From: Tubulanus polymorphus
Taxonomy: Eukaryota; Animalia; Nemertea
Direction of reading: 5' to 3'
DNA: 64,000 bases
NCBI RefSeq assembly: GCF_964204645.1
Contig: NC_134027.1
Coordinates: forward strand, 23,088,560 to 23,152,559
Positions 1 to 63,839 of the stretch are shown here, piece by piece. The notes under the pieces were generated by a model, which saw only the letters and a program-made list of their open reading frames with translations, ran no database searches and had not been told where the DNA came from. Numbering within the stretch: position 1 is the stretch's first letter; every line of letters starts with the position of its first letter. Position numbers and translations under genes: made by a program.

Positions 1-274
1 GTCTCTGTGAGTTTCAATGTAACTTCTACGCTACCAACAGAATTATTAAGTTTACACGAATAAGATCCGTAATCAGACGCCTGAACTGATTGTATGGTGA
101 CATCCCACTGCGTTAAACTGGTATTTTTCATTAAATGTTTGCCATTTGTTGAATTGTGACTGCAATTTAAAGTTGTCGCTTGCGGATTCGCATCGTAGTT
201 TATCGTGTATCTTATATTTTCTCCTATATTCGCGGCGATGGGTTCAACGAGTTGTGGCGATAGTTTTGGTGCAT
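1..274 (-). CDS. Gene A exon, membrane-proximal Ig module f (truncated by window)
   Basis: DAPKLSPQLVEPIAANIGE..INYDANP..DYGSYSCKLNNSVG; tag acceptor. Confidence 0.88.
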
Positions 275-6200: not shown

Positions 6201-9200
6201 TTTTTGATATTCTAATTGTTTCGGTTCACTGTATAATTGCCGCATTTTTTTTGAAAGCGCCTCACCCAATCAACATCGTGATAAATAAACATCACGCAGA
6301 TGAGAATCAGTTGACATTATACGGTGGGACTACTAAGAAAGAATCATTTGAGCATCTGTCCCAATTCTTGCCGTATGATACATTTACTGCGTGATATTCT
6401 ATTTCAATCAGAGAATCTGATCCGTTTGAATTTCTGTTTAACGCGTTTGAATTCATATTCTTTTGTATTTGTACGATATTCTTAGTCTTTATTCATGATT
6501 ATTGCTCTATCCCGATGTGACAAGAATATCTTTTGATAAGGAAAAAACCCGAAACTTTAACATATTTCTGCCTCATAAAAACGAAACTCATATGAACTTC
6601 ATAATTAACTCCGTCAAGGAGCCGCACGCGTTTTCCGCGGCATTCAACGCAGTAATCTAGGTACAGATATTTTGTTCTTTATCGAAAATGACGGAACAGA
6701 TTTGATGAATTCCTTTGAATTCATTGGATGGACAGTATAAAACTAATTGTTATTATAAAATGTAATATGATGAGTTGAATGACGTGAGTTTAGATGAGTA
6801 CTTACATTCCACATTGATAGTAATATTACCAGCAACTGATCCTGCTATATTCGATACGTTACATGTATAGACACCTGAATCAGTTTTACTGATTCGTGTA
6901 AAACTGAGTTTATTATTAGACTGTCCTGATAGATTGACACCGCTCCATTTGTACGTCAGTCCTGTAGCTCCAGACTGTGAACCGTCACATGCGATTGTTA
7001 ATGGTGAATTCTCCTGTACTGCGACGATGTTGTTGTTGGCGGTGTTTGGTTGAGATGTTAGAACTGGTCCACTCGGGGGCGCTGTAAATGTAAAACTATA
7101 TCTATATTGAAAACCACGGTGGTTTCAATGGTACATTTTCAATACGCCTGCTGGATTATTGATTTTGGAAATTTAAAAACAAATCATCGACATGGAAATT
7201 AATGATTTTACATGAATAAGTCAAAAAGTTTATTCATAATATTAGAAATGTTTCGGGTGGTTGCTAACACCCTTCTTCAGTCTAAAATGACTTGCCAAAT
7301 AAATACACAACATATGTATATAAGCATATTAATATAGAATCATATACCTGTCACTGCACATAAGTTATGGGGACTAGAGTACTGACATTATACAAGTATT
7401 TTGAAGGGAGTTTAAGATGGGGGATGAAACCTTTGTTTAGGTTGACAGAGCCGTCGGAATGAGTGATAATTAAAGCAGATTCAACTATGTCTCTTTTAGT
7501 GAGATTGATGTTGGCAAAAATAATATTGGCTCCAGGAAAATCAAAATTATATCCGATTTCAAAGAAGGGATACCCCATTTTACTTATATCACCCCATTAA
7601 AAACATCCCGTTTATGTTCCCTGATTCTTCCCAGTTTCACCAAATATAGAAAGTTTACAATCAGATCAGTTGATTCTATTAACTCGACAATGGACATTAG
7701 GGTTAAGATTGTTATTGGAGCAAAATAAAGAAATTTTATTGATATACTTGAAAATGAAATCGGTATTCAAATCATGAGGAGCCGGTTCGAATTTTTCATG
7801 ACAATGACAAAAGGAACTATAATTTTGATTTTAGGCTTTAACGAACTAATGATTACGTGGTCGCGAAGGAGAGAAAAACTTTTTTTGACATTGTGAAGCG
7901 CTTTCTCTAAATCTTTGTCCGGGTATGCAAGTTTTCAAAAAAAGGTTGAATATGCTACTAAAATACAGCGTTGTACACAAGAGTAGAGTTGACCATGATT
8001 CTGGAGCATTTTTGGGTGGCTATAGCCCCTTAATTCCCCAACCAAAAATGCAAGGGAGCACTTTTATCCGATAGTTTACTTTGTTTATCCGATAGTTTAT
8101 TTTGAAATTTTGAAATTTGCCATCAAACCTTTTTAACGCAAAAGTGGAATTGGGCTCTCCTACTATGTAAAATCTAACGGCCTAAACAGTTTTTATCACA
8201 AATCCTACGTGTATAAGTCCCAAGGGAAACACCCTGAACAACCACCGCTTTAAGGTAAGTTTGAGTGAATGGAAAGAAATTCAGGTAGGATTCACAGTTG
8301 AAGGTTTATGAAAAACAGAGAAACCTAATCTCGAATTAAGCTTTTGTATGAGAACATCCAAAAATGCATTTTTCCATCGAAGGAAAACTTTAAGGAAGGA
8401 TAAAGGATATTAGGAAATGTCAAAAAATAGTCAAGGTCGAGATCAGTTGATACTAAACATAATGTGTAATCGCCATTAACTGAACCATAGAAGAGGCGCG
8501 AATATATAGGGGTCAAATTTCACATTCAATGTGTTCCCAAAAAGGTAAGCTAGAATAGGTGATAGGGGGTTGCCCGTAGCGAAATCACATATTTAATCAA
8601 AGAAATTGCCATCAGTTTGGAAAATAGGCTCTTCGAAAAGTACATAACTCTAAAAGATCAATGAAACATACGTTTGATACAATCTAAAGCGAGTTCCACT
8701 GGAAGGTTAGTGAATAGAGAGACTGCATCAAACGAGATGAATGTATGCATTAGGGATAATGTGACGTCTTGTAATAAATCCGTATCGTGTTTGATATGAG
8801 AACCAGAGAACGAACCAAGTACGTGAAGGAGAAAGCATTTTGGCAATAATCGATTGGAATAATCGATTAAGAAAAATAATTAGAGGGAGAGCCCTTGCCG
8901 ATAGGACGTAAAGCGACATTACTTTTATGAATCTTAGGGAAGCCGTAAGCGTATGGTAAATTTCATAATTGATTTCTTATCAGTAGGATGCTTATATACA
9001 TATACTGTGTATTCTTGTGAGTCATTTCAGATTGAAGAAGGGTGGTAGCAACCACTCGAAATACGTCAAATATTTTGAATAAACTTTTTTACGGAAGCGT
9101 CCTGGGGACATCATTTACGAGCAATAAAAATTTTATTTTTTGGTGAGATATATCTCAACATAAAATCATTTACGGTTAATACATAGTTTTGCCGATTTTA

Positions 9201-11666
9201 TGTCGACTCATTATCTCGACATAAATTCAGAAATTTTCCTCTTAAATTCAAAATTCGATTTTCTGCCGAGAACCACCGCCGTCCTGGAGAAATCTTTTAT
9301 GAAAAACGAAGAATTGATTTTATGTCGAGTAATCATCTCGACATTAATTCATTCACCATTAATAAAAAGTTTAGCCGAATTTATGTCGAGTTATTATCTC
9401 GAAATAAATTCAATTTTTTTATTAATCGTAAATGAATTATGTTGAGATGTAACTCGACATAAAATCAGCAAAACAACGGCAAAACATTTTATTTAATTGT
9501 AAATGAATTTATGTCGAGATGATAACTCGACATAAATTCAATTTTTGTTTTTCATAAAAGATTTCCCCATGACGGCGCTGGATCTCGACGGAAAATCGAA
9601 TTTTGAACTAAAGAGGAAAATTGCTGAATTTATGTAATGAGATATCATTCAATTGTTTATCATCCTTACCTACTACAGTAACTACTGTTCTACTTTCTGA
9701 AAACATGTTCATGTATTCACATGCCCATCCTCCAGCATCAGACATATGTACATTAGTTATACGTAAACCGTAACGTCCAGCTGTTATGTCACATTGTCCA
9801 GTGTACCGAGATTCACTAATAGCGCCACGAGGACAGTTTGTCTTATCAAACGAATACTGTACAGTAGGGGTACTGAATGTCATTCTGTAACCGCAGAAAT
9901 CTTTACTGGGTGGTGAAACCTGACATTGTACGTCAGTGGTGCCACCTAGTGTTACAACTGCTGGTGTTACAACTGTCGTGATTGTCGTGTCCGCTGCATC
10001 TATACAATTCTGCTGCTGTCCTAGAATTATTCAATCACCTTTAAACATTTAAAATCGTTCATGTCATCGTGTTCCTATTAATCTAATCTTTTACAAGTAA
10101 TTTGTACTACATTGGCCGGGACATACGAAAATCAACGCTATACCGCGAGGTTCGTATTAAGCCATTTCGTATTAACGAGGTTCAAATGTATATGCACCAA
10201 ACGATGATCTCTAGCGAGAGTCCGAAACTTGGTGCATTTTCATCTTGATTCTTGAAAAATTAATATTCGATTTAAAGTTTTAATTTGTGTATTTACGTAG
10301 TGCGTCTCAAACTCATTAAAGACTGAAGAACAATAGCTAAATACTAAGTAAGCGACGAACTAAGGGTAATGATACAAGTAGAAGAAAATTAACAACCATT
10401 GGTGAAACAATATCTGATTGGTTTAAACGATATTTAGAACATCTTTCACTCATATAACGGTAGATCAAGTCTGAAAAGTTTCTTTTAAGCTATGAATTTA
10501 TTCGTCCAACGTTTCGACTATACCCCAATAGGCATCTTCAGGAATAACGAGTGAAAAAAAATATGACACATAATGCCATCGAGAACAAAGGAACCGTGTT
10601 TCTCATCACCGCGCACGTCCGAAGAATCAGTGACGAATATCTGGTAAAAATAGCGCTCGAATAATTGAATAATTTCTGTTGGTTTCTTTTCAATGCGAAA
10701 AAATGGAATGCTCAATAGAATCCTTGTTCATTATTATTTCTTTTTCGTACTTGGAATTATGTAATGTGCATTATCAGCAATGGTTATTGATGCGATGTAG
10801 ATAGATCGGGGTTTAAAACTGTCATTTGCCCTGACATTGGAGATTTCGGTAAGCACAATCCAAAAGTAAAGACTCGGTTCCCTCATGCCATCTTCAGTGC
10901 ATTTTCTACCTAAATCAAAATAAGGAAGTTGACTCCCTCAGGCTCCTCTTCAATCCCCCTTTCATTACAAGGACTAAGTAGAAATGTATGCCCCCCGCGT
11001 CACTTTGGAGAAGCCAGTGCACAATGAGAAACACGGTATGTATTTTGAATGGCGTTATGTGGTAGTATTTACCTGCTGTAGATCTCACGCAGAGAAGAAC
11101 AATCACAAACACACACCAGACTACCGGTACATTCTGAATATATATTAGAACAATAAATTACATGTGTTTGTCATAAATAAAGTTTTCATTTCTAAATCAA
11201 TTTAATCGACGTCTTGTTCGTGGACTTAAAACGATTTAACTATTTATAACCATACGTACATATATTTGTAATCGCAAACAGCAATCTATGTAAGATCTAT
11301 TGACGAATAAGCCACCATAATTGATTTACGTATCTAAACTCGAAATTTTTTGGATCATTTCATTAATGGCCTTTGCTTTGATGTTGGAGAGCCTAAACAA
11401 TTCTAAAGCCGTGCTTAAATAAAGTCAAGTCGTGTAAAAATTAATTTGAGTAACTTATGAATCTGAATATGTAGGCCTATAACCTTTTTTTATTCAACAA
11501 ATCCATGTACGCAACTAACATATTTTTGGAACTAACACAATTTTCTTGCAGTTGTGAAGTGACTGTGGTGGCTATAAGTAAGAAGCCAGTGGCCTATACG
11601 CGTGTTTACGATTTTACTGCATTATATAGGCCTACATGTACTCACTTGGATGCGTTGAGTGTTCAT
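1..11666 (-). CDS. Gene A: multi-exon IgSF receptor (leader-V-a-b-a-b-b-c-d-f..., 3' end off window)
   Basis: Exons 11646-11666, 11073-11133, 9670-10020, 6806-7081, 5672-5947, 4827-5099, 3706-3981, 1468-1743, 1082-1384, 686-1009, <1-274; all GT-AG with consistent phases; signal peptide MNTQRIQ/NVPVVWCVFVIVLLCVRSTAG. Confidence 0.88.
686..1009 (-). CDS. Gene A exon, Ig C2-like module d
   Basis: PPESMTLTEIPSGPVVQGTSKTLTCTTDSSNP..W..NGRQYRC; phase 1-1. Confidence 0.9.
1082..1384 (-). CDS. Gene A exon, Ig C2-like module c
   Basis: KTPADNVLVNNNQQIECKTDSSNPAAQIQWF..NQARYRC; phase 1-1. Confidence 0.9.
1468..1743 (-). CDS. Gene A exon, Ig C2-like module b (3rd copy)
   Basis: PPSSVTLQGPTSPVQESASVDLTCTTTGGNP..DNQAEYQC. 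Confidence 0.9.
2082..2522. mobile_element. MITE with ~55 bp TIRs and CGCATG target-site duplication
   Basis: TATGGTGGCTGA...TCAGCCACCATA termini; CGCATG at 2076-2081 and 2523-2528; empty site with a single CGCATG in the homologous sequence near 23637. Confidence 0.8.
2640..3160. repeat. Degenerate tandem repeat (about 3 units)
   Basis: Recurring attcaacgcccc..tggtg..aaaccaat..ccttgaaactcaccacaatcatag near 2656, 2894 and 3042. Confidence 0.65.
3706..3981 (-). CDS. Gene A exon, Ig module b (2nd copy)
   Basis: DPPSGVTLQGPTSPVQES..CTATGGNP; cag/gtaagt boundaries. Confidence 0.9.
4827..5099 (-). CDS. Gene A exon, Ig I/C2-like module a (2nd copy)
   Basis: PPSGPVLTSQP..VQENSPLTITC..YKW..DSGVYTC. 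Confidence 0.9.
5672..5947 (-). CDS. Gene A exon, Ig module b (1st copy)
   Basis: DPPSGVTLQGPTSPVQES..; 276 nt, phase 1-1. Confidence 0.9.
6806..7081 (-). CDS. Gene A exon, Ig module a (1st copy)
   Basis: Open 276-nt exon homologous to 4827-5099; cag acceptor, gtaagt donor; not in the ORF track. Confidence 0.88.
7200..9090. mobile_element. Old non-autonomous TIR element in the V-a intron of gene A
   Basis: ~7220-7330 and ~8985-9090 are inverted copies (tttcgggtggttgctaacacccttcttcagtctaaaatgact / agtcatttcagattgaagaagggtggtagcaaccactcgaaa); interior homologous to B and C introns; boundaries approximate. Confidence 0.65.
9090..9607. mobile_element. Foldback/MITE-like element (TACGGAAGCGTC terminus family)
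   Basis: Internal inverted repeats ~9247-9330 and ~9520-9607; same terminus recurs at 13020. Confidence 0.6.
9670..10020 (-). CDS. Gene A exon, atypical V-like Ig domain (6 Cys)
   Basis: GQQQNCIDAAD..VQCQVSPPSKDFCGYR..YGLRITNVHMSDAGGWAC; 351 nt, phase 1-1. Confidence 0.9.
10503..10546 (-). ncRNA. Minimal hammerhead-ribozyme-like core (Penelope-like remnant)
   Basis: Minus strand CTGAAGA-stem-GAAACGTT; stem I weak. Confidence 0.35.
11073..11133 (-). CDS. Gene A leader exon 2 (signal peptide core)
   Basis: NVPVVWCVFVIVLLCVRSTA(G); phase 0-1; conserved in gene B. Confidence 0.85.
11646..11666 (-). CDS. Gene A leader exon 1 (start codon)
   Basis: ATG AAC ACT CAA CGC ATC CAA|gtgagt; the paralogue in B reads MNDQRIQ|gtaagt. 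Confidence 0.7.
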
Positions 11667-16560: not shown

Positions 16561-16620
16561 ACAATAATACAAAAATCAACAACTCTTTTGACAATAATAC
16601 AAAAATCAACAACTCTTTTT
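16561..16620. repeat. 30-bp tandem duplication overlapping the gene B stop codon
   Basis: acaataatacaaaaatcaacaactctttt(g) x2. Confidence 0.85.
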
Positions 16621-16961
16621 CTGCTGCTCTTCTTCTTCACGTTGTCTGCGTCGTTCGGCCTCTTCTGCTTCCAAACGAGCGACAAGTTCAGCTTGAACTT
16701 GCGGCTCAACGACGCGACCGAGTTCCGAGTACGTCGAAAAATCCTCGAAATCACCGATCAGTACACCAGGGGGCGCTTGATTTTTGACGTTGTTAACGAC
16801 GTGTAGATAGATCGGTTCTTTTCTCAGTTCTTCTACATCGTCTGCATTGAATGCAGGGTTGTCGACACCACAGTTAACGTACTTCACGATATCCCCATCG
16901 TCATCGTTGTAAACGTCTTGATAAGGATTCGCTTCGTCGCCAACTGTTTGATAGGGATTTT
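16606..16961 (-). CDS. Gene B last coding exon (cytoplasmic: NPYQTV, NPYQDV, EPIYLHV, ITIM STYSEL, charged helix)
   Basis: tttcag acceptor; open to TGA; matches ORF 16606..17013. Confidence 0.8.
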
Positions 16962-19900
16962 CTGAAATCATACGCGTAACAACATTTAGTGAATTCAATA
17001 AACAATCCGTCAAACGATTCAGTTTGCCAGTCTACATCTGGGAATTGAAGGTTCCATTAAATCTATCAAACCCTCCCGCATAAAAGTGTCTGCTTTCTAA
17101 AATGCCCATGACATCTTCAAGTCTGCCCACTAATGATTGGATATTCATTTCACGCCCTATTTTCCACAGTAAACTCTGCCTTACTTGGACTTCCTTTGTT
17201 TTTTTCCCTTTTAGAAATTGTACTTCAGAGTTAGCGTATCGGACATCGCACAAAATTCTGATTCTCTCGTTAGAATCGGTGTAAACGTAGAACTCACCCA
17301 TTTCGTAGTTTTCATTTTTCTCTGCTTTTTTCGCCTTCTTTCCTTTACGCTTTTTGTTTTTATCGACTTGTGAGTAAAGTGGTTCTGCACTATCTACCGA
17401 CCCTGAAGAGAAAACACGGGATGTGAATATTTTAGAAACAAACTTCACGTCATACTTTTTCTCGAATATCTAATTTGGGATTTCATTTTGTGTAGCCAAC
17501 ACATTTTTTTCTTCGAAAAAGTTTCTGAATGTGCTTTTGCTACAAATAAAATCCCTTTAGTATAGATTTCATTCTATGCATTTCACCTTTCGTTTTCTTT
17601 TTCTTGCTTTTATCCACATTGGAGTAAATTGGATCAGTACCGCTTGCACCATTTACGACTGAAAATAAGCCACAAGTTTGAAAAAAAACGGCAAAATCAT
17701 TGTCATTTCATCTATTATTCCTGACAACATTCGCATTATTTATAACAACAACGATTCAGTAGTAATACTAAACTGGGAGCCGTGATATCAATGATTGAGG
17801 AAAAATAAAATCCCTTTAGTATTGATTTCATTCTATGCTTTTACCTTTCGTTTTCTTTTTCTTGCTTTTATCCACATTGGAGTAAATTGGATCAGTACCG
17901 CTTGCACCATTTACGACTGAAAATAAGCCACAAGTTTGAAAAAACCAGCAAAAAGAATTTCATACAATTCTATTCGAGAAAATCATTGTTATGTCATCTA
18001 TTATTCCTGACAACAATCGCATTATTTACAACAACAACGATTCAGTAGTAATACTAAACTGGGAGTCATGATTTCAATGGTTGAGGAAAATCATGATTAG
18101 TTTCTTAACAAAGCTTTTTCATCGAAAGTGACTTTATTGATTCTGTACAAATTATCACGCATTTCTACGGCAATTGACGGCACTCTTCGTGTTTTCAATG
18201 ATTTCAAGGAATCGGTAAAATCATGATTAGTTTCTAATGTAAGCCTCTAATGGAAGGTACCGTAGTCTATGCACTAATGGTGGCATGGAATTGTGCGCGA
18301 CCAATTATTTCATTAAATCTTTAGTCTAATACATCGTAAATAAAAATCGTAGCGGAAAATGCTTTTTGATTTTTTTTTTCACTTTATCTAGTTGGTTTTC
18401 ATAAAACGAAATTTGAAAGAGTAAAACTATTGCCATTTCCTCTATGTAACTATGTGTATCGGTAAGTTCTTCGTGAATATACGGCACATGTAATCCTGCT
18501 ATTCTAAGAGCATTTCACCAAATACGTCGATCGGTTCCTTGGTATCATTCTAGATTTGACAAACACTTGTTTACCTTGATTCTGATTTCGTTTTTTCTTT
18601 TTGTCAACCTGTGCGTAAATCGGTTCTCCTGAAAATAATAGAATTCAAAATCTATTCCGATCGCCTCTACCATTCTTCTGGTCAATGATCGAGGAAACGA
18701 TAGGTTTTTATAGATTGAGCCATCAATATTGTATCATTTGGCAATTCCCGAATATAAGTGATCACTGTACACTACCGGACATTCCCGAACATTACCGATC
18801 ACTTCGATCATTACATCCAAAAATACGAACTTGAATTCGCTACACTTTAAATCAAGCTTCGGACTTAGATATTGAGATAATGAATACGTTAATTGATTCG
18901 CGGCTCGGAAATACTCGGTGGTTTTACGGAGATATCCGGCAATATCGATCGGTCCAAAAAATCTATAAAGATAGGGCATTGTAACATAAAGATAAAACTC
19001 TTACCAGTTTTCTTGACTCCATCTTCTGAAACTGCGAATATAGAAATGGATTTATTTAAGTACTTATAATGTATTAGTTCTAATTCAGTTATGACAATAT
19101 TTGTGATACAGTAATACTACGTAAAATCCTACAATTGTAAATTGGCTAGAAAAGTTCATTCTAAAATTACTCGTGATAATCTGGGGGATTACTGCCACCC
19201 TCCTACGAACACTCTTTACTTTAAAGGGAGACGGATGAAGGAGACTTTTAAGATAGAAGCAGAGTGTTAGCAGCCACCCGCAATTTTTTCGATGATTCTT
19301 TTAACAAACCTTCCACTCAATTCAGTAGATCAGAAAATATCTTTATTTCAATAATGACGAAGTCTCAATGAAATGAGGAAATGAACCGATTGCTTACCAA
19401 GATCGTCAATGTTCGAATACGGATCTGAAAATGTGAAATACGTTTAAGCAACTCATAGACGGCATTGTGATTGAAGAATATTTTATAAAAGTCCGATCTT
19501 TAACTTAAAAACTCTGTGCTGAAGATAGAAAATATTTTTTTTCTTTTTCTTTTGCCCATTCGGGATCTAAGAGGACAAAGACAAACGTGAATTTCAATAG
19601 TATTTTTCTCTGAAGAAATAGAAAACCCTAATAATTTGTGCCAATTTTGATACTAACTAAGAAATTCTCGAAACATTTAGGGATGCGATATAACTATAAA
19701 TATTGTGGAGATAACGTAGTTCATAATGAAAATTAAAAACTGGCTGACAAAGATTTTCAACAATAATTTGTGACATGAAACCTGTTGCAATAATCTGTTT
19801 GCGTAAATTTTCGGCGTGTAAGAAAGTTGTAAAATTGTGACATTACCGAAGTCATCGGTAGTGACGTGATTATCTTTGGTCGGTGGACTTTTAGGTTTTT

Positions 19901-22900
19901 TGTTGACTCGCGCGTACACGTCACCTAACAAGGAAAAGACAAACAAATATTTGAAAAAATAAATGTTTATTGTTTAGGTGAGATGAAAGGTTTAAAGTGG
20001 CAAATTTTACCTCTAGGTCCGGCTACATGTCCATCGATATCGTTATAGTTCGGAGGAGGAACTGAAGCCGGACTGAAAAAAAGGGAAACACACCATTTTG
20101 TGGCGATCGCCCGGGCTGGAAAGGGAATCTCTGACATGGAATTAAGTTAAACAAATAGGAATTGAAATCTCTAGTTTCTACCTTCTCGAGCTATTTTTTG
20201 TCCAGATCCATTGACCTTCTCGACGCCTTTTCACGAATAGCAACACGAACACAATGACGATGAGGGCGAGCAACAATACACCCACAACAACACCTCCGAT
20301 CAGTGCAACATTGGTAGTAACTAAGAGGATAAAAAATAAAATGTGCAAACTATGACAAGAAAGTATCGATGTGCCTGAATTTCACCAGAGATATTTTTCA
20401 TTAAGAGTGAACTAGCAAAATGACTATAGGTATGGGATATCTATGCATTTATTTGTTTTTTTATCTTTCTTTTCAACGTTTGGATCTTGGTTTACCGACA
20501 CTAACCCGCAAATATTTACCTGGAATTTCTACCCGATGGCTCAGAATTACGTCACTACTCTCAATTACAATCAGTTTGTAACTGTATGCTTTATCGGGAT
20601 CGATTTTAATCTCAATACTAATCGGCCCACCAGTACTTTCTTGTTTCGTAGAATTAAAACATTCGTTTGTATGTTTGATACAGTATTTCACGTAGACGCT
20701 GTACTTCGACGGAAACGACGACATTTTTATCAGGACACTATTTCCGTACTGTGTTACTGTCGCTTGCTTCAATACGGTGTTTATAGCGCTTGGAATAGCT
20801 AGAAAATTAGAAACCATGAATTCGATTTCAAAAAAGACCGGAAAAAATTATATCATCAACACAATCATCTAGACTGGAGTACGTGCAGCCAATCCCACTA
20901 GCTGGAAATAACAGCCGAGTTAGAATTCTCAAGATCGGGGATCAAGGAGGCACGTATGTCGCTACGTATTTGCATTCCGATATTCGTATCAGTAGGAAGC
21001 TCCTGGACTCTGTTTTTGGGCTTAAAATGATGCAACATCGAATGTGAATGATATCGGAAAAGTTAACTGGTAAAATAATCCGAAACAGCTTTTCGTTCGA
21101 TTGTCGTCGTTGACGGTAACAATCACGAAATGAGGAATTTCCGAAAATGAGGAATTTAACTCAGCGAAATTAACTTTATTAATTTCACATAAAGAAATGT
21201 GCGTTAAAGTAATCGAACGAGCTTAAGGATAGGCCTGTATTTATATCTTACTAAACTTACATATCTTACAAGTCTCCAATCTTACCATTTGTTCTAGTTG
21301 TAACTATATCAGTAAATGGACTCGTATTATCACCGGGATTTAAGTTGACACTTTTCACTTTGAACTGATAATCAGTTGATGGTTTTAATCCGGTTATTTT
21401 CGTTTGCACCAGTTTTCTATAACCGGGATCGGGTATTTCAGCTTTATTCACGAATTGTGTAGCATCCGATACCCTGTAACTGACGGCGAACGTTTGTTTG
21501 GCACCACCCTCAAATTCAGAAACCCAACTCAGCGTCACAGAAACAGCTGTTTTTGCAATAACTGACAGATTTGACGGTGTTTGGGGAGGTCCTGAAACCA
21601 CAAGAAAAAAAGAAATTCGTTTTATAGTTCGCACGCTGCACTAATTTATTGGGATCCCAGTTCAGCAAAATGCAGTCTCGTGTTATTCAGAGTGTTACTC
21701 CGGTATTAATCTGAAGCCTGGGCCCAGCATCCCTCCAGACATCCGACTACTCAAATATTATCAATTGATGAACGACTAACAGAAGAGTTATCATTGAAAA
21801 TAGGTTTCAGGCTGCAATCGATATTTGCAGGTTTTATTAGAATTGATAAGTGGTAAATAGTGCTATAGTGCAAATGACTGCGAATTTCTGAAAACAACAT
21901 ATCTTTCGAAATAGCACATGATTCTTACCAGTTTCTGTGAGTTTCAGTGTTATATCTATGCTACCAACTGAATTATTGAGTCTACACGAATAGGATCCAT
22001 AATCAGATGCCTGAACTGATTGTATGTTGACATCCCACTGCGTTAAACTGGTATTTTTCATTACATGGCGGCCCTTTGTTGAATTGTGTCTACAGTTGAG
22101 AGTTGTCGCTAGCGGATTTGCATCGAAGTTTATCGTAAATCTACCACTTTCTCCTATATTTGCGGCAACGGGTTCAACTTGTGAAGAAAGCTGCGGTGCA
22201 TCTATTGTAGAATTAAACTAAATATGTAATATTGTATCTAGTGTATATAGAATAAAAAGTTTCTAAAAAATACAAGAGTAATTTTTTCAGCACTTGAAAT
22301 ATGAAAGAATGTACAGTGTAGTCTCAAATGAAGATATGTACCAGTTGCACTAATGCTATGAGGAATTTGATCCCCTTGAGTAACGGAGTAGAATTAAAAC
22401 AAAATACGGATGAAATTTGGAATAGAACTTAGAATAAAGATAGATGAATTGCTGAGAATGTTTTCCTTCGATGCGAAGTAATTATGTCCCCCGGACGCTG
22501 TCGTTGTACTGTGTAACTGGTTGTTTACATTGGACATCGGTAATAAAATATCACTAATATATGGAGTAAAGATCACTTGTGAGAATACAACGACGCTTTC
22601 GTAGGGCTTTTATTTGTTAACTCTAAGATGAGATAAATATCAGTTCACTATAGTCATACTGGTTTTTTTACAGCGGACATCGACGATAAAAAGTAACTGA
22701 TAAATGGAGTAAAATTCCCTCGTATGAAATCATATCAGTTTTTTACAAGTTTTCTGTGACGAATTCATCATTCGTGGATTTGATTGATATACGGTCATCT
22801 GATATACACTAACTACTATGTTTTACAAAATTAAAAGATAATTTTTCATTTTATTGCCTCAGTAATCCAAGACCTCTACCGAAACGGCTACGAATACATC

Positions 22901-25900
22901 TGATTATTGTGCATCATCATTTATCAAGAAGATAAATCGCCTATTCAACACTTACACAATATAGACAACGTCATGGATGTGTTGACACCATTGACAGGTT
23001 GACTGTTTTGATAAGCTGAACATCTATATTGTCTTCCATTTTTATCCTTATCAGTTGGTACTACTAGACTACTAGTAGATGCCCGTGCACTGTGAGATCC
23101 GGGTTTATGATTTACTGTTGGATTGGGTGAAATATCTGTCCAAGTTGTCGTCCCAGAGCTGTACGCCCAGACAATTGTAGACACCGGGTTACTTGAGTCA
23201 GTTGTACACGTCAGAGTTTTTGATGTACCGTGAACAACTGGACCGTTTGGAATTTCAGTCAGTGTTATTGACTCTGGTGGAACTGAAGATATAACATTGA
23301 AAGTCATGATTGATACTTTTTATTGGATGGTCTAATGCAACGTCAGCTCGTGTAATATCGGCTTTTTGGCACAAGGAGGTAAAACTGTACGGACAATAAA
23401 CTGATAACATTTTTCTTACTCCGCGATATTTCAAGGTCGTAGGCAGTACGACTGTGTATTGATAAGCCGGTTTTCGGTCTCTATTTTCGATTAGAAACTT
23501 GTCTAATAAGAGACCACAGAACCAGTGTAATTGAGATAGATTGGTTGCCTGTCGAACTCAGGGCAACTTGCATTTCCTGTCCGTTTGAAAAGACAAGGCA
23601 TCCAGTCTATGTTCCTGATACCGATGTACCGAATCACGCATGCGCCACACCTCAGTAGGAAGTAAACACTGATGATATACACTGACATACGCAATGGTCC
23701 GTCCGTCGGCACTGTTTTATACGACGGCGTCCTAGAGACATTAATCTATTTTTTATTTTCACTTTTCCGGCCATAATTATCTGCGTGTTTAGAAAGGCGC
23801 AGAAAAGTCTCCCATGAATACGATTGCTGATCCAGGCCATGACCGCAAAATTTCTAATGCACAAATTAAAACGGCAAAAACAGGGATTTGAGAAAATTGT
23901 CAGCTTTTCCTGACAATTTTCTCAAATCCCTTTTCAACGCGCTAGAAGAGGGATTTCTCACCCACGTTTGGGTGCCCTCACCAGAACAGGGTTCCATTCA
24001 GGCGCTCGCGCAAAAACAAGAAATTACGTTTTTTTTAATCTTAAGATAGGGATTGACACTATCTAATTTGATCGGTAGATTTCGTAAGATTTTTTTTTGT
24101 TTTGATTTAGTGTCCCTACAAACCTACCACATCAGCCGGGAGCAAATCAGGGGTTTCGGAAATCGAAGGACATTTACAGTTGTTGGATCGGCGGTTGAAT
24201 ATACGGAATATTTTGTTTGAATTGAAGTATATCTGACTCCCCGTAACCTTGATTCAAAATTATATGTTTTCTTGATTTACTTTAGCTATTCAATTTTTCT
24301 AACACGCAGAGAAATCCGGCGGACTTTTCTGCACCTTTCTAAACGCGCAGATAATTATGGCCGGAAAAGTGAAAATAAATTAATGTCCCTAGGACGCCGT
24401 CGTATTTTTAAGTCAGAATTGATTTATTTTTATAGACAAGATTACATCCAGATTCCATGAACTATGTAGACTCGACCAGAGCGGGAAGGCTGTAACTGTG
24501 TACAGAATTTATTCTAACTGCGCATGTCAGTTCTTCTATCGAAACATACAATGAGGAATAGAGTCCGAAGCCCTTAATCGTGCATAGATTCGCCCCTCTT
24601 AGTTGCAGAGTACGTATTTCTTAATACGTCGTTGCGGGGATAACGTGAACATTATATGCCCCGTTAGTGAGGAGGAAGGTCATAAAAAACTACTGTATTC
24701 CTATAACCTCAAAAATCGTACATTCAAAAGTCCTGAGTGAAGGGCATGAATTTTGCGAGAAAATTTAAGAAAAGTGTACAATTTCCTACGACAAGCGACC
24801 TTGATAATATCGCAAAGCAGGAAAAATACGGTAAACATAACATACGTACACTATCGTCCCCTTGTGTAAAACAGCCGACATTACACGATTTGACGTAACA
24901 TTTAGCTGATGTTTTAACGGTAGACTATAGTATTTATCAATGTAAAGGCTAGTCAATGAAACACTGATTCAGTAAAACCAGGGAGGTGGCCACCTCCCTG
25001 GTTTTACACTCGATCTGTTGACTATTGTTTACTAATACATAATCGGCGCGTTTCTTCACTTAAGCATAATTTGTTTTCAATATTGTCTAAATCTAGGTAT
25101 GTTGGACTGGAAGATAATTTGTTTCAATGAAGTGACATTTATTGTAAATACAGCGCATTTGTTGGTTTTCCGACTCAAATCGATGAATGTATAACCGTTA
25201 AACACATCACAAGCGCTATTCTACACTTACACAATACAGACAATGTCGTGGAGTTGGTGACACCATTAACAGGATAACTGTTCTGATAAGCTGTACATCT
25301 ATATTGTCTTCCATTCTTATCCTTATCAGTTGATACTACTAGACTACTAGTAGATATCTGTCCACTATGAGATCCGGGTTTATGATTTACTGCTGGGTTG
25401 GGTGACAAATTAGTCCATGTTGTCGTCCCAGAGCTGTTCGCCCAGACAATCGTAGACACCGGGTTACTGGAGTCAGTTGTACACGTCAGAGTTTTTGATG
25501 TACCTTGAACAACTGGACCGTTTGGAATTTCAGTCAGTGTCATTGATTCTGGTGGAACTATAAATAATTATTCAAATTCACGCTCCTTCATTAGCAATTC
25601 AGGGAAAGCGCATTTATATGAGCAACAATCTACAACACTTCATTTGATATCTTAAATAGTGTTTCATACTTACAGTGAACGGTAATTGTTGCATCATTGC
25701 TAAGATTTCCAGTTTGACATCTGTATTGAGCCTGATTCATAGATTTAGTTGCAGTCATAGATAATGTGCTAGTAGCCATAAACCCGTGATAGGCTGCACT
25801 AGTTTGATTCGTAGCTTGTTGAGAGTCAAGTAGTGTCCATGTTGTAGAGGAATATTTGAACCACTGAATCTGTACAGCCGGGTTTGACGAGTCAGTTGTA

Positions 25901-28900
25901 CACTCCATCTGTTGATTATTGTTAAATAATACATGATCTGCCGGTTTCTTCACCATTGTCAGCGATGTTGCTTGAACTAGAAATAATTTGTTTCAATATT
26001 CTCATAATCCGAGGATGGTGACGAAACAAAATCACGTCAAAAATAGAATCACATTCACTTCACGAGGTTACGAGTTATTTGTAAACAATGTACAGTACTT
26101 ACAGTTGACAGTTAATATGAATTTATTAGAAATCATTGGTGTTGATATACCAGCCCCAGAAGCTGCACATTGGTATTCTGCCTGGTTATCTGTTTTAGTG
26201 ACGGATGTTGAATATGTTAGAGGGCTAACTCCCTGTTTCACAGTGCTGCCCCCTGTAGTTATGGTGAGGTTCGGTACCGGGTTACCCCCTGTAGCTGTAC
26301 ACGTGAAGTCAACGGAAATGGAATCCCGGACTGGTGACGTCGGTCCTTGTAATGCAACACTGCTTGGCGGATCTGAAATGGACGAGAAAAATATTTCGCC
26401 AGCGGAAAAAAATTGAAGGTTTGAAGCCGAAACGTCAAGATTCAAAATAGAACGAATTTCATATAAATTCTCAATTCACTCTCATTAATGAACCTCTACG
26501 TGTAGTTTAGAAACAGGTTTCATTTGGTAAATAATCCGGTGCGAAATATTTTCGAATGATCTGAAATGATATATTTTAGAACTAATGTATTTTAAACTTA
26601 CAGTGAACAGTAATTGTTGTATCTTTGTAAATACTTCCAGTTTGACATCTGTATTGAGCCTGATTCATGGTTTTAGTCGCAGTAATAGATAATATACTAG
26701 TAGTCACAAACCCGTGATTGGTTCCAGTAGTTTGATTCGTAGCTGGTTGAGAGACAAGTGGTGTCCATGTTGTAGAGGAATATGTGAACCACTGAATCTG
26801 TACAGCCGGGTTTGAAGAGTCAGTTTTACACTCTATCTGTTGATTATGGTTTACTAATACATAATCTGCCGGTTTCTTCACCATTTTCAGCGTTGTTGCT
26901 TGAACTAGAAATCATTTGTTTCGATATTGTCAAAATCCGTGTGTGTTGACGAAACAAAATTATGTCAAAAATAGAACCGCAATTGCTTCATGGGAATAAC
27001 GAGTAATTTGTAAATTATCTGCAGTACTTACAGTTGACAGTTAATCTAACTTTATTTGAAATCATTGGTGTCGGTATACCAGCCCCAGTAGCTGTACATT
27101 GATATTCTGCCTGGTTATCTGCTTTAGTGACGGATGTGGAATATGTTAGAGGGTTTATTCCCTGTTTCACAGTGCTGCCCTCTGGTGTTCTAGTTATGGC
27201 GAGGTTCGGCTTCGGGTTACCCCCGGTAGCTGTACACGTTAAGATAACAGTTGCAGATACCTGAACGGGTGACGTCGGTCCTTGTAATTTAACATTACCT
27301 GGCGGGTCTGAAATTAAAAGTGTTAAAAAGCGATTTTCTTGATCGATGAGTTATATGTACAACAGCAACAGATTATTCTGTACAATTTCATATTTCAGAT
27401 TTCCTGCCCAGATTCATTTGGAATGCATTAAAAATCATATTTATTCCAAGCATAAGCTTTTGCATGAAGCTTTTTACGGAGTTATTTCTCAGATTCAAAT
27501 GGATATAAAATATGAAGTATCGAGTCAAGTCATTCGTCGAGTCAAGTCATCAACAATGCATTCGCATGAATAAATTTCTCGTACGTTATTGATGATTTAA
27601 TTCTTGCGGTTCGCTGGTAAGCTGCCGTATATTCTTTAAAGCCGCAACTCACCCGATCACAATCGTAACGAATAGACTTCATGTAGAGAAAATACGGTGA
27701 ATATCGATCGATGGGAAGATTCATTTGAATGAAATATGTATATCTGTTATAATTAATGGGACATAAGGGGTCTAGAACACACCCGATTGAATAGGGTAAA
27801 TATGCCTGAGAAGAGTCCGCGGTTAAAGGATAAACGCGTTTAGATTAATATTTTGTGGTAATCTGACGATATTTTCTTGCCTACTTCATCATTCTTGATA
27901 ATTGCTTTATCCCGATGTGACAAAATGTCATTTGATAAGGATAGAATCTGAAACTTTAACATAATTCTGCCTCATAAATGCACTTCATAATAAACTCCGT
28001 AAAGGAGTCGCGCGCGTTTCCCTCAGCTTTCAACGCAGATATAGGTTATAGGTACCTATAAATATCTCGTTTCTTTATCGAAATCGATGAAACACAGATT
28101 TGAAAAACGAACTCCTTTGAATCCATTGACTGGGTTATTTCTAACAAATTTCTGTTACGAATTGCCTAATATGAATACTAGGTAAATCACGTGCGTTCAT
28201 CTATCTTAACGTAATACTTACATAGAACATTGATAGCAATACTACCAGCAACTGATCCTGCTATATTCGATACGTTACATGTATAAACACCTGAATCAGT
28301 TCTACTGATTCGTGTAAAACTGAGTTTATTATTAGACTGTCCTGATAGATTGGCACCACTCCATTTATACGTCAGTCCTGTAGCTCCAGACTGTGAACTG
28401 TCACATGTGATTGTTAATTGTGAATTCTCCTGTACTTTGACGATGTTGTCGATGGCGGCGGTTGGTTCCGATGTTAGAACTGGTCCACTCGGGGGCGCTG
28501 TAAATATGAAACTATATTGGAAACTACGGGGGTTTCGGTGGTTCATTTATTCATAGATTTAGGCAATTTTAAAGAAATCATCAACATAAAAATTAATACA
28601 TCAACATGAATCAGTTGTAGATCACAAAATATCCGTGATAAAACGATAAGAGTAAAATCCCACTATAAATGAATTGATAGATAAAAAGTTTAATTCGAAT
28701 GTAAGAAATATTACCCTCCTTCAGTCTAAAATGACTTTAAAAAAAACGCATGTACATAAATACATTGTCTATGCATGAAATAAGATACGAATTACTGCAC
28801 ATTAAGTAATGGGGACAGGAGTATTGACATATTTTGAAAAACAGATGTAATGGGGGCTGAAACCTTTATTGAGGTTGACAGAGAGTTCGGAATGAGTACA

Positions 28901-31900
28901 AATCAAAAGCGGATTCTTACTATGTGGTGTCTATAGTGAGATTGCTGTTTGGAAAAGCAATATTGGCTCCAGGGAATTCAAAAGTATGCCCGATTTGCAA
29001 AGAATAGAGACTACTAACCCCACATATCTAATTTCACCCTCTTAAAAGCATCTCGTTTATGTTCCTTGATTCTTCCCAGTTTCCCCAATATAAAAAGGTT
29101 ACAATCAGGACAGTGAGAACAGAACAGGAAAAGATACTTTTTTAGCTTTGTGAAGTGCTTTCTCTAAAACTTTGTCCGGGTATGCAAGTTTTTTTTCAAA
29201 AAAAGGTTGATTATGTTACTAGAATTTCAGCGTTGTGAACACATAAAGTGAAATTGACCCTGATTCTGGGGCATTTTTGAGCGGCCATAGCCCCTTAATG
29301 CCCCAACCAAAAAATGCAAGAAAGCACTTTTACCCGATAATTTATTTGGAAGTATTGAAATTTGCAATCAAACCTATTGTACGCTAAAATGGAATTGAAA
29401 CCCACCTTTGAGCTCTCCTTCCATCTAAAATATCATTGCCTTAAAGTTTTTATCACAAATCCTTAGAAGCTCCAAGGGAAAGACCCTGAACAACCACCAC
29501 TTTAAGGTAAGCTTGAGTGAATGGAAAGAAATTCAGGTACGATTCACAGCTAGTAAGTTTACGAAAAACAGAGAAACCTAATCTCGAATTAAGATTTTGT
29601 ATGAAAACATCCAAAAATGGGTTTTTTCCATCGAACTCCCACTCGAAGGTAAACTTCTAGGAAGGATGAATAAAGGCTCAAGTATAGTATACAGAAAAGT
29701 AGAACGATGAGACTTTTTACAAGCAAAAATCAATGCGCCAGAGATCAGTGTAGGTTAGTTTTACTTGCCGACATCGCCAACATTGCCGACATTGGGAAAG
29801 AGATATTTAATGTCGGTTAGTTTAACTTGCCGACATCGCCGACATTGCCGACATTGGGAAATAGATATTTAATGTTGGTGACCAAATCACTACTTCAGTT
29901 TCTATATAATCATACACCGGAGGAACTACAATCCCATATACTATACTTGATCCTAAATAAAGGGAATTAAGAAATGTCAAAAGATGTCAAGGATGAGATC
30001 AGTTGACACTAAACATAAAATATAATCGACATAACTGCGCCATAGAAGAGGCGCGAATATAGGGTAAAATTTCAGATTCAATGTGTTCTAAGAAAAGGTT
30101 AGCTAGAGTAGGCGATAGAGGCCCGTAGCGAAATCATATTGCGCAAAGAAAATGCCATCAAATTGAAAATAGGCTCTTCTAGCGCATAATTCTAAAATAT
30201 CAACGAGACAGTTAACTGAGGCAGGAAAATTCAAATTACAGGACGGGAGTTTGCGTCTGATAAAATCTGAAGTGAGTTGCAGAGGGATCTATGCTGTGAA
30301 TAGAGAGACTGTGTCAAAAGAAATGAACTTGTTGGCATTAAGGGTAACGTGACGTCTTGTAGTAAATCAATATCATGTTTGATATGAGAACCAGAGAACG
30401 AACCAACAAAGGAGAAAGCGTTTTTTCAATCGAGGATCCAGAAAGATATCAAGAGGGAGAGCCCCTTCTTGAGATGATAAGATGCGTAAAGGGACGTTAC
30501 TTTTACGAATCTTAGGGGGCGGTAAGGGTAAGTCGGTAAGCTGGGTAATCGGCTGGTCAATTTCATAATAAATTTATCATCAGTAGGATGTTTACATATA
30601 CTGTGTATTTATTTGGGCAGTCATTTTAGACTGAAGAAGGGTGACAGCAATCACCCGATAGGCTATGTTTCTAATATTTCAAATATTAAACAAGTTAGCA
30701 ATCAATTCCTTTATTGCGGGATTTTATTCTTATCAATCAACATGCTGCAAATGATTAGAGTACGTGTAAAATGTTAAACGTTTTACTCACGCTAATTTAA
30801 TTAATAAAGCTTTAACGTTATTACTCGTCACATTTTTTAACTCGCAGTCAGTGAATTGTTCAAACCCAGATCACATGGTGAATGCAATTTCACAGTCACT
30901 CTTCATCACTGAACACGATAAGAGAAAAATGAGATATTATTGAACTTTTTATCATGCTTACCTATAACAGTTATTATTGCGTTACTATTTGGAAAAGAGT
31001 TCATGTAATCACACTTCCACATTCCAGAATCGGTCATCCGTACATTAGTGATACGTAAACCATAGCGTCCAGCTGTGACGTCACATTGTCCAGTGTACCG
31101 GGATTCAGTGATAGTTCCACGAGGACAGTTTGTCTCGTCAAACGCAAACTGTCCCGATTGGCCAGACATTGTTATTCTGAAACCGCATAAATGTTTACCG
31201 GGTGGTGAAACCTGACATTGTACGACAGTGGTGCCACCTAGTTTTAAAACTGCTGGTGTTACAACTGTCGTGATTGTCGTATCCGATGCGTCTATACAGT
31301 TCTGCTGTTGTCCTAGAAATATTCAAAACCCTCATATATATAATTTGTTGACCAATCAAAACCTTAGGCATGATGTCAAATGTTGTTGCTACACATGTAT
31401 TAAGTCCCAAAAAGGCGATCAGCAATCGTATTAACCGCATTGATTTACTATGGAAATGAGACATAGGGACCGAAAATTTTCATCGTTTTAAACGGATTTT
31501 TCATGTCATCGAGTTTGCATTTTTACTAGTTATTTGTACAAATCATTGCCATACAGCGAGTTTCGTAATAGCACGTCTCGTATTAACGAGGTTCCACTGT
31601 ATATAGACCATACGACGATCTCTAGAGAGAGTTCGAAACTTGGTACGTTTACAAAGAGGATTCAGTGACGAAAATCTGGTAAAGATGCATTGAGCGCTAC
31701 AGCGTCTAGTGTTATAATATCTGTTGCTTTTCGGTTTTTATGAGAACAAATTGAATACTCCTGTTAAATAGAATCTTTGTTCGTTATCATTTTTCTTCTT
31801 TTTACACAGTTGGAAATTTAAGAAAATGTCATGAAATGCGCATTGTCAGTAATGGATCAGGTGATTGATGAAATTAGTGTAAATCGGGGTTTGAAACTGC

Positions 31901-43332: not shown

Positions 43333-44124
43333 CAAAACAGAATACTATTGACCAGCCGGAACTTCTTATTGGATAAGATACTTAATATACAATATAGCAT
43401 GTGCTTGATTCGCCGACAATACATGACATGTGTATGCTGGGGATGTATTCCTGTTTGCTACGCCAAATTAACTGCTGAAGGAGGTTGTCTTGTCTTCAGA
43501 ATATCGTCAAACTATTACGAAACGACTGCGAAACATTGATGATCAAGTTGAACTAGAACAGATGAAACGTGGAATAGGTCTTGAAGTTGATGCCAATTCT
43601 GATGGTTCGTCGATGCAACAATGTTCGAATTCCTGCGAGTGAAGTTTAATTCTTACAAATTATGAGCGAAATCCGTGAAAAAAATCTGAGGATTGTTTCC
43701 TTGCTTATTACTTGCTTGTGCTTACTTAACAAGTGTTACTTAAGATGTGGTTTACTATCCATATGTAAATGCGTACAAGTAGATGAACTTTATGTCCTTT
43801 TTCAGCCGCTTATTTTTTGATGATGCGTATCATGATCGATGTGATTTTATTTCGATCCACAAAACTATAGTAACGTGTACAAATGTAAACAGCTGTAAGA
43901 AAAGAGAAGAAAATAATTGATAAGGCCAAAAAATTGATACCTTGTTTCTCATTTCTGCTGAACTTCAAAGTTGACTTGGGTCAACCACCTATCTAATACC
44001 CTGTATATTACTTTTTTTAAATCATGATCCATTTTACCATAACCGACCCGGTAGCTATAGAAATGAACTCATTACAAATTCAGTTGCAATTTACTAAATG
44101 ACTCTGTCGATTAGAAGAAACAAG

Positions 44125-57372: not shown

Positions 57373-63839
<6,467 letters not shown>

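Follow-up and report, generated by a model that had tools for sequence, protein, structure and literature searches.

The 64-kb window from the nemertean Tubulanus polymorphus (the whole stretch of DNA that we analyzed, 64,000 nucleotides) contains five duplicated genes for Ig-type surface receptors, which we will call A to E. Genes A and B have long tails and are on the minus strand; genes C, D, and E have short tails and are on the plus strand. Gene B is a V-Ig/FN3 receptor, probably derived from nephrin/SYG-2, with up to nine Ig domains that have the usual cysteines. Its ectodomain exons (20520..31312, minus strand) encode a V-set domain, eight more Ig domains (I-set or C2-type), an FN3 domain, and a membrane-proximal domain; its leader exons are further upstream. 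Gene C (34921..43332, plus strand) is head-to-head with gene B and has an intact reading frame and a short tail with the end YVNV...YEEV; its V domain is 85% identical to that of gene B. Gene D (P0009; 49144..55163, plus strand) has a short tail with YMNV...YEEI. The window also includes the ectodomains of gene A (1..10020, minus strand) and gene E (P0035; 58020..63839, plus strand; no V domain). The short tail of gene E (YEEV) is beyond the window, and so is the long tail of gene A, which we read from RefSeq model P0036: it has six Csk-type sites, and across the transmembrane segment and tail it is 92% identical to gene B. Most of the other matches to the family are apparently on the 27.8-Mb contig, and two are on a 16.5-Mb contig.

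The transmembrane exon of gene B (20182..20320; this and all of the tail exons are on the minus strand) encodes a helix without charge, followed by KRRR. The next exon (20011..20072, phase 2 to 1) contains the tyrosine of PPPNY, which gene A lacks. Then come seven in-frame phase-1 exons of 27–105 nt, at 17298–19924, with six tyrosines that fit the consensus for the SH2 domain of Csk. Site 1 (DVYARVNKK) is in a 78-nt exon at 19847..19924 and site 2 (DPYSNI) is in a 27-nt exon at 19398..19424. A 27-nt spacer exon without tyrosine (19005..19031), which has shifted acceptors in RefSeq isoforms, precedes site 3 (EPIYAQV and then a lysine cluster; 54 nt, 18575..18628). Sites 4 and 5 are identical copies of DPIYSNV (the first listed with its lysine cluster), in 72-nt exons at 17845..17916 and 17587..17658. 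Site 6 (EPLYSQV and then a lysine cluster) shares a 105-nt exon (17298..17402) with ENYEM. The acidic terminal exon (16606..16961), which is common to the long-tail paralogs, encodes a YQTV-x6-YQDV tandem, YVN, EPIYLHV (which does not fit the Csk consensus), the ITIM-consensus motif STYSEL, and an E/R-rich end. All of the array exons have AG/GT ends and lengths divisible by 3, and the C terminus of RefSeq model P0004 is the exact product of the joined tail exons. An earlier, sequence-only reading of this DNA had placed all of the motif exons correctly. It had also described a micro-exon for each tyrosine motif, but the spacer exon has no tyrosine, the EPLYSQV exon has a second one, and just two of the seven short exons are 30 nt or less. 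It passed over the ITIM and the tandem YxxV pair of the terminal exon, and also the neighboring short-tail genes.

As the consensus for Csk we used Y[TAS][KRQN][MIVR], which the sequence-only reading had quoted and which is in print (PMC2194115, Table I). It matches 6 of the 14 tyrosines in the tail of gene B versus none of the 36 in the ectodomain; in a six-frame translation of the window, 45 of 5675 tyrosines match. Shuffling the tail 20,000 times gave at most three matches, and never four. The claim that all six sites fit the preference of Csk holds up. The EPIYAQV, DPIYSNV, and EPLYSQV exons are alike in their DNA (each of the three pairs beats 500 of 500 codon shuffles), while the likeness is not significant for the other 7 of 10 pairs of motif exons, and the two DPIYSNV copies arose by a recent 258-bp tandem duplication that included the intron. 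Because three of the exons are related and one was duplicated, we count about three independent origins for the six sites.

The array had been called EPIYA-type, or CagA-like. Literal EPIYA/EPxYAxV occurs at one of the six sites in gene B (the other five are not literal) and at two in gene A. A HMMER search with the tail against 1.84 billion representatives gave nine matches: four strong ones, all from Tubulanus, and five weak ones, including the unrelated repeat protein P0041. The tail also weakly matched a protein from a Bartonella effector cluster (E = 2.3e-4), and matches in the ESM Atlas (0.82 and 0.80) were inside the range reached by shuffled proteins. We considered whether the array shares an ancestor with CagA or was acquired by horizontal transfer and rejected both, as homology stops at the motif. 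EPIYA likeness alone reflects ordinary convergence toward an SH2 consensus. Nor would a host counterpart of the motif that bacterial effectors mimic be new, since Pragmin, LIME, PAG, and Dok-1 were already known. Natural Csk sites such as LIME Y167, p62dok Y449, and PTP-HSCF Y381 (PMC2194115, Table I) closely resemble the sites in gene B, including the downstream lysines. So the comparison to CagA contributes little: equally close host sites in LIME, Dok-1, and PTP-HSCF have long been known.

The tail is spliced. Ten junctions connect the membrane-proximal exon through to the last exon, and spliced contigs of run X4 have canonical joints for 9 of them (those around the transmembrane exon are 20320/20520 and 20072/20182); the array exons are spliced at high depth. 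The one tail junction that is not listed among the X4 joints is between the two copies of DPIYSNV. This support is from one sample of one study, and none of these joints were seen in runs X1, X2, or X3. (A joint in X3 that "goes back 257" could be a third copy of DPIYSNV or a collapse of the assembly graph.) We checked seven non-synonymous read variants in the last two exons, and all seven agree with the tail of the sister gene A. The X4 contigs are evidence for the splicing of this type of tail, rather than of gene B alone, and the claim that the exons are spliced into mRNA stands in that form.

The sequence-only reading also suggested that the number of sites is tuned exon by exon. The 27-nt DPYSNI exon is the sole exon to be left out in RefSeq isoforms of gene B (P0002 and P0003). 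An alternative upstream acceptor at 19566 would give a 169-nt exon (19398..19566) whose reading frame stops after 20 codons, so that one Csk-type site would remain and the rest of the tail would be lost; a loose contig end at 19847 in X4, together with record 31, points to this form, and RefSeq model P0021 ends likewise. But we saw no exon-skipping joint for gene B in the X4 contigs, which lose rare forms. Four non-canonical joints in X4 (16953-17293, 17346-17586, 17633-19398, and 18626-19004) were considered as exon skipping and rejected: the letters inserted at 17346-17586 read as a P0015-type tail, two more of the joints are at equal depth in the contigs, and the remaining one differs from the canonical joint by a single letter. 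The number of motifs differs mainly between paralogs (0–6 sites), with RefSeq models as the basis for exon skipping.

Across the family, a common type of ectodomain is joined to either of two unrelated tails. (Tails beyond the window are from RefSeq models, and P0019-24 and P0045 look chimeric.) Long tails have 0–6 Csk-type sites and one ITIM. Among 28 protein rows, the strict Csk consensus is found in 16 of 17 long tails (a count that is inflated by isoforms) versus 0 of 11 short tails. Conversely, all 11 short tails end in Y[ED][ED][VI], and Y[ED][ED][IVL] is found in 0 of the 17 long tails. The exception among the long tails is P0034, without any Csk site, and P0015 has a single strict match. 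None of the 11 short-tail members has a charged residue in its transmembrane segment, so their own tails would carry the signal. We did not find the canonical ITAM (Yxx[IL]x6-9Yxx[IL]) among the listed tyrosines of short tails, which have YxNV and YEEV/I instead. Neither class is pure in its motifs: 6 of the 11 short tails fit TxYxxV, the consensus of the switch-type pattern, and the long tail has an ITAM-like tandem and four YxN sites besides its Csk-type sites and ITIM. With the tail of gene B as the query, blastn found no match in gene C, gene D, or the in-window part of gene E.

V domains do not follow the tails. Pairs from different tail classes have V domains that are 85–93% identical, and in a tree of 14 V domains, gene B groups with gene C and the short-tail P0006 (support 100/99) and the long-tail P0015 groups with the short-tail P0030 (100/100), while the long-tail gene A groups with the long-tail P0024 (97/90). 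The two tail classes formed separate sides of the tree in 0 of 200 bootstrap trees. P0015 and P0030 are 92% identical in the ectodomain versus 24% in the transmembrane segment and tail; for P0004 and P0006, these values are 85% and 35%. Genes B and C share introns (190 of 206 bases after the V exon). Across the whole V domain, dN is below dS in all six pairs. At V residues 37–60, dN is nominally higher than dS in all six, but these pairs are not independent, and the excess depends on 1–3 synonymous changes. A structure of the V domain that AlphaFold predicted from four aligned rows reached a pLDDT of 47 and was set aside. As in paired receptor families, similar ectodomains are found on different tails, and the five genes in the window are clustered.

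We propose that, in a lineage-specific family of paired receptors, gene B provides the inhibitory arm, with a multivalent array of predicted Csk sites, and that its short-tail kin are activating; we consider this about an even bet. Our predictions for the family's phosphorylation, partners, signal sign, and immune role are as follows. Upon clustering by ligand, a Src-family kinase would phosphorylate the tyrosines of gene B that are preceded by acidic residues. The Y[AS]xV-plus-lysine sites would then dock Csk at the membrane and turn Src-family kinases off, and the lone terminal ITIM may bring in an SHP-type phosphatase. Short-tail paralogs, with their similar V domains, might recognize identical or similar ligands and would pass the signal on via Grb2-type (YVNV) and Src-SH2-type (YEEV/I) sites; the model SH2 ligands are pYVNV for Grb2 and pYEEX for Src. 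The strength of the brake would change chiefly by the gain or loss of exons between paralogs, and secondarily by splicing. The EPIYA-A and EPIYA-B motifs of CagA bind Csk, and Src kinases are inhibited when CBP/PAG or CagA brings Csk to the membrane. However, the cytoplasmic protein Pragmin potentiates Src although it binds Csk, and LIME binds Csk, yet T-cell Ca2+ responses rise. So the earlier equation of Csk recruitment with Src silencing applies to CBP/PAG and CagA but is not general.

We also considered that these proteins might be a non-immune family for recognition or adhesion (nephridial, neural, or epithelial), with tails that are general SH2 scaffolds for tuning cytoskeletal signaling: Csk would provide feedback, and YEEV/YEDV would recruit Nck-type adaptors, which prefer YEEV/YEDV-like sites. 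The best match with a solved structure is SYG-2 (E = 7.7e-16), the nearest proteins outside of Tubulanus are nephrin-like (24–26% identity), and RefSeq names the family members as nephrin-like or syg-2-like. We read these names as ancestry or domain likeness, with orthology only putative. Against a role in adhesion, strict Csk sites are absent from the tails of three of three invertebrate relatives outside of Tubulanus, and the recent tandem expansion, the V variation, and the cross-class pairs are what receptors for immunity or allorecognition typically show. We consider this explanation unlikely, but a serious contender. (The two roles may overlap, as Alr proteins are adhesive as well.)

Another explanation is that the array docks a mixture of partners, or partners other than Csk (SHP2, Grb2-type adaptors, or Syk/Shark via tandem YxxV), and that the net effect of gene B is not inhibitory. 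Three of the six array sites (YSNI and YSNV twice) also have asparagine at +2, which is the Grb2-type pattern, and with YVN there are four YxN sites. The YQTV-x6-YQDV tandem is ITAM-like (with V in place of L/I), the tail has 11 YxxV/I/L sites altogether, and EPIYA-type peptides bind SH2 domains promiscuously. Also, it is the terminal exon, not the array, that is retained in all of the full-length long-tail paralogs. However, in P0015, the +1 (A/S) and +3 (V/I) positions of the gene B sites are kept while +2 drifts: the matching site is YSTV in P0015 (and YSSI in P0020/P0022), without the asparagine. This pattern fits Csk better than Grb2. Furthermore, the residues at −2 in the array are P, D, or G-type rather than the hydrophobic residue of ITIMs. 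Overall, we think that a mixed or non-Csk platform is improbable. It is very doubtful that most of the array reflects neutral duplication of exons in a cluster that recombines fast, with one or two sites that matter and the others as passengers: identical 72-nt copies with near-identical introns, the range of 0–6 sites among paralog models, and symmetric phase-1 exons that duplicate without breaking the frame would all suit this, but when the long tails are aligned, the tyrosines are retained along with their +1 and +3 residues while spacers drift, the X4 contigs join the array exons at high depth, and similar repeated arrays evolved separately in unrelated proteins.

If the paired-receptor proposal is correct, then this is a further independent origin of paired receptors, with the balance set via Csk/Src rather than SHP/Syk. 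Vertebrates have clusters of paired activating and inhibitory Ig receptors, and related systems are known from a tunicate and a cnidarian; in a literature search that covered few subscription journals, we found none for nemerteans or other lophotrochozoans. Also, EPxYAxV, which was reported to be depleted in mammalian proteomes, can be a repeated native motif of an animal receptor. More tentatively, we speculate that a nephrin-like adhesion gene became a paired system for immunity or allorecognition, independently in a spiralian lineage. A Csk array that can expand exon by exon, with one site in each (0–6 copies, plus a truncated splice form), would act directly on Src instead of via ITIM/SHP, Src-SH2/Grb2 docking would replace ITAM/Syk, and ectodomains and tails would have been swapped by recombination. 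This whole scenario is possible, but we would not bet on it.

The paired receptors of vertebrates (CEACAM1/CEACAM3, Xenopus Ceacam, SIRP, KIR, and Siglec) are likewise clustered Ig genes with similar N-terminal V domains and unrelated tails, and one account (PMC5112662) gives 80–93% IgV identity and opposite orientation for Xenopus Ceacam pairs, as compared to 85–93% identity and, in the window, opposite strands in Tubulanus. These receptors are not homologous to the Tubulanus family, and the tails differ: the putative inhibitory tail has a Csk-type array and one ITIM (STYSEL) instead of tandem ITIMs, while YxNV and YEEV/I stand in the putative activating tail, without the canonical ITAM or the charged transmembrane residue. 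Alr of Hydractinia (PMC9546547) also combines clustering, V-set, I-set, FN3-like, and transmembrane segments, diverse tyrosine tails, and alternative splicing, but it has canonical ITAM and ITIM tails, with no mention of Csk in that paper, and its Ig domains are atypical and few; no Alr protein was among the homolog matches of the Tubulanus receptors. FcoR of Botryllus, which is from a different phylum and for which we found no homology to the Tubulanus family, is an IgSF protein with an ITIM, a hemITAM, and a "core" YxxV, whose alleles, splicing, and premature-stop isoforms switch motifs; it is paired with Fester genes without tail motifs, and a Csk array is not described in the available part of that source (PMC12582321). 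Nephrin and SYG-2 share the array of Ig domains (I-set or C2-type) and a membrane-near FN3 domain with gene B, but the ectodomains are just ~25% identical, the tail is unrelated, and the Tubulanus genes form a multi-copy cluster. In PECAM-1 and Drosophila Draper-II, the tail is also pieced together from several exons, and their alternative splicing adds or removes a tyrosine motif; there the motif is an ITIM for SHP2/Corkscrew, while for gene B the candidate skipping is from RefSeq isoforms. Bacterial EPIYA effectors (CagA and the Bartonella Beps) have repeated EPxYAxV-type motifs that grew by duplication, as in gene B, but they are secreted and injected, and gene B is an intron-containing animal gene that shares just a convergent short motif. 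Finally, PAG/Cbp, LIME, Dok-1, PTP-HSCF, SIT, and Pragmin have Y[AS]xV sites (PMC2194115, Table I), frequently with basic residues after them. These are adaptors or enzymes with one or two listed sites, whereas gene B is a large receptor with six, one per exon.

The tail of gene B contains a real array of tyrosine exons. The stretch from 19924 to 17298 (minus strand) holds seven phase-1 exons, all symmetric, and six of them encode a tyrosine that matches Y[TAS][KRQN][MIVR] (DVYARV, DPYSNI, EPIYAQV, DPIYSNV twice, and EPLYSQV). The sequence-only reading described exons that each encode one motif; the seventh exon has no tyrosine. It was right that six sites fit the consensus for the SH2 domain of Csk: 6 of the tail's 14 tyrosines match, versus none of the ectodomain's 36 and 45 of the 5,675 read in all six frames of the window, and 20,000 shuffles of the tail gave at most 3 matches. 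One exon type gave rise to four of the six sites, and a recent 258-bp duplication accounts for two of those four, so the number of independent sites is about three. Models P0020 and P0023 have a single copy. At 17545-18102, a DNA contig from sequencing run X3 goes back 257 bases inside this unit, which is either a possible third copy of the exon or a graph collapse.

The array zone is basic (34 Lys+Arg versus 21 Asp+Glu in 145 residues), while the last exon (16961-16606) is acidic (12 versus 28 in 118 residues). Basic stretches in T-cell receptor tails bind lipids, which gates access to tyrosines. By analogy, the lysine clusters that follow the array motifs (17298-18628, minus strand) could control access to the tyrosines by binding acidic lipids of the membrane. 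These clusters also resemble nuclear localization signals. At 20011-20072 (minus strand), gene B encodes PPPNY, which fits the PPxY pattern for WW domains; gene A has lost this tyrosine.

Of the five sequencing runs considered, none is recorded as RNA, but X4 behaves as RNA. Contigs from X4 (a single sample, contigs only) have canonical joints at 9 of the 10 junctions in the part of gene B that begins with the membrane-proximal exon and ends with the last one, and none of these nine joints were found in X1, X2, or X3. The tenth junction, absent from X4, links the two identical exons; contig graphs collapse such exons. At 7 of 7 non-synonymous variants checked (14 listed variants were entered in the script), X4 agrees with the tail of gene A, while its contig over the membrane-proximal exon matches gene B with zero differences in 199 bases. 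So, the X4 RNA proves the tail architecture both for the family and for a B-type ectodomain, and not for the assembled allele of gene B: the small exons do reach mRNA, as claimed earlier, but with gene A letters at the variants checked. The dose of sites was also proposed to be tuned exon by exon. RefSeq isoforms P0002 and P0003 do leave out the DPYSNI exon, but no exon-skipping joint in this tail was seen among the X4 contigs. An alternative acceptor (19398-19566, minus strand), seen as a loose end in X4 and in RefSeq model P0021, brings in a stop codon once the first Csk-type site has been read; transcripts using the acceptor at 19566 may be decay substrates.

Judging from its motifs, a Csk mechanism for the array is plausible. 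Among the sites tabulated with the Csk consensus in PMC2194115 (Table I), those of LIME, p62dok, PTP-HSCF, PAG, and SIT resemble the Tubulanus sites, often with a lysine close downstream. CagA's EPIYA-A and EPIYA-B bind Csk, and EPxYAxV is described as depleted in mammals (PMC3593179). Three array sites have Asn at +2; nevertheless, Csk is favored because +2 drifts among paralogs while +1 and +3 are retained. Recruitment of Csk to the membrane lowers Src activity; Pragmin holds Csk away, hence higher Src activity (PMC3593179). CBP both recruits and activates Csk (PMC10016382). Given these effects of recruitment to the membrane and of CBP, a transmembrane-anchored array would be expected, by analogy, to inhibit, although LIME is a counter-example.

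Five paralogous Ig/FN3 genes lie in the window: A and B are encoded on the minus strand, the other three (C, D, and E) on the plus strand. Gene B is tiled by P0004 (1,454 amino acids), with a V-set domain, 8 further Ig domains, FN3, a membrane-proximal domain, a transmembrane segment (TM), and a 300-residue tail. Its V exon matches Tubulanus polymorphus RefSeq "nephrin-like" proteins at 100%. Searching with this exon gave 18 matches among 178 candidates, all 18 from T. polymorphus; an FN3 search gave 18 among 95, of which the named ones are all from T. polymorphus and one other is gene A. The closest proteins from outside T. polymorphus are nephrin-like (24–26% identity), and SYG-2 is the best relative among solved structures. 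In the V domain (30962-31312, minus strand), six cysteines are kept across paralogs and residues 37–60 are variable. At 58020-59455 (plus strand), gene E has a 63-nt exon in place of the V domain, a tandemly duplicated Ig exon (386 bp), and an (AT)84 run (58151-58318). Between genes C and D, a GC-richer intergenic stretch (44000-46500), with a 59-bp tandem repeat at 45458-45659, is possibly a mobile element.

The family has two classes of tails. We examined 28 protein rows, after setting aside nine duplicate isoforms and two models lacking a TM. Of these, 17 rows, from about seven genes, carry tails of the long type, with 0–6 Csk-type sites each; apart from the truncated P0021, they all share a terminal exon. 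Eleven have short tails (60–102 residues) ending in Y[ED][ED][VI]; in 7 of these, a YxNV/T site precedes that end by about 12 residues; no strict Csk site was found in the 11. (pYEEX is a Src SH2 ligand and pYVNV a Grb2 SH2 ligand; PMC2888578.) The TM and short-tail exons of gene C (42107-43332, plus strand) are intact in the window, though RefSeq P0017 stops before the TM, and its tail is in small exons as well. P0006 is a hybrid: its TM exon is of the long class, but its tail is of the short class and contains a duplicated segment.

In a tree of V domains (14 rows, leaving out eight representatives without a matching V domain), the tail classes are intermixed, with 6 of 11 inner branches open. 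Gene B groups with short-tail gene C and P0006 (100/99), P0015 with P0030 (100/100), and gene A with long-tail P0024 (97/90). Cross-class pairs are 85–92% identical over their ectodomains versus 24–35% over TM and tail. Genes B and C are arranged head to head, with intron sequence in common, with dS of 0.08–0.26 across four exons. Over a stretch of the V domain, dN exceeds dS in 6 of 6 window pairs, resting on very few synonymous changes; over the whole V domain these pairs show no such excess. P0019–24 have a middle identical to gene B and A-type tails, and P0045 joins a gene A ectodomain to a B-type tail; these RefSeq models are either annotation artifacts or real recombination or gene conversion.

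A clean split into activating and inhibitory classes is weakened because the long tail holds an ITAM-like tandem and YxN sites. It is also weakened by six short tails that match a switch-type pattern, by the mixed RefSeq models, and because neither a canonical ITAM nor a charged TM residue was found in the short-tail rows. We give even odds that gene B is the inhibitory member of a paired-receptor family.

Three otherwise unrelated records (P0038, P0040, and P0042) have repeated LYAQVDKK or IYSVVDKS motifs, which are independent arrays of the gene B type; a Bartonella effector cluster has an IYATV array. The array is therefore a recurrent convergent solution. The likeness to CagA's EPIYA motifs, which the sequence-only reading stressed, concerns a real array but holds little novelty in itself. 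No paper on the Tubulanus Ig/FN3 receptor family was found among the matches listed. The new element is a candidate paired-receptor cluster in a spiralian, with a predicted brake in the form of a Csk array. The Ceacams of Xenopus (PMC5112662) are a precedent for paired receptor clusters, and Alr of Hydractinia (PMC9546547), FcoR of Botryllus (PMC12582321), PECAM-1 (PMC5664058), and Draper-II (PMC4503800) are among the precedents for paired clusters or for tails with spliced motifs.
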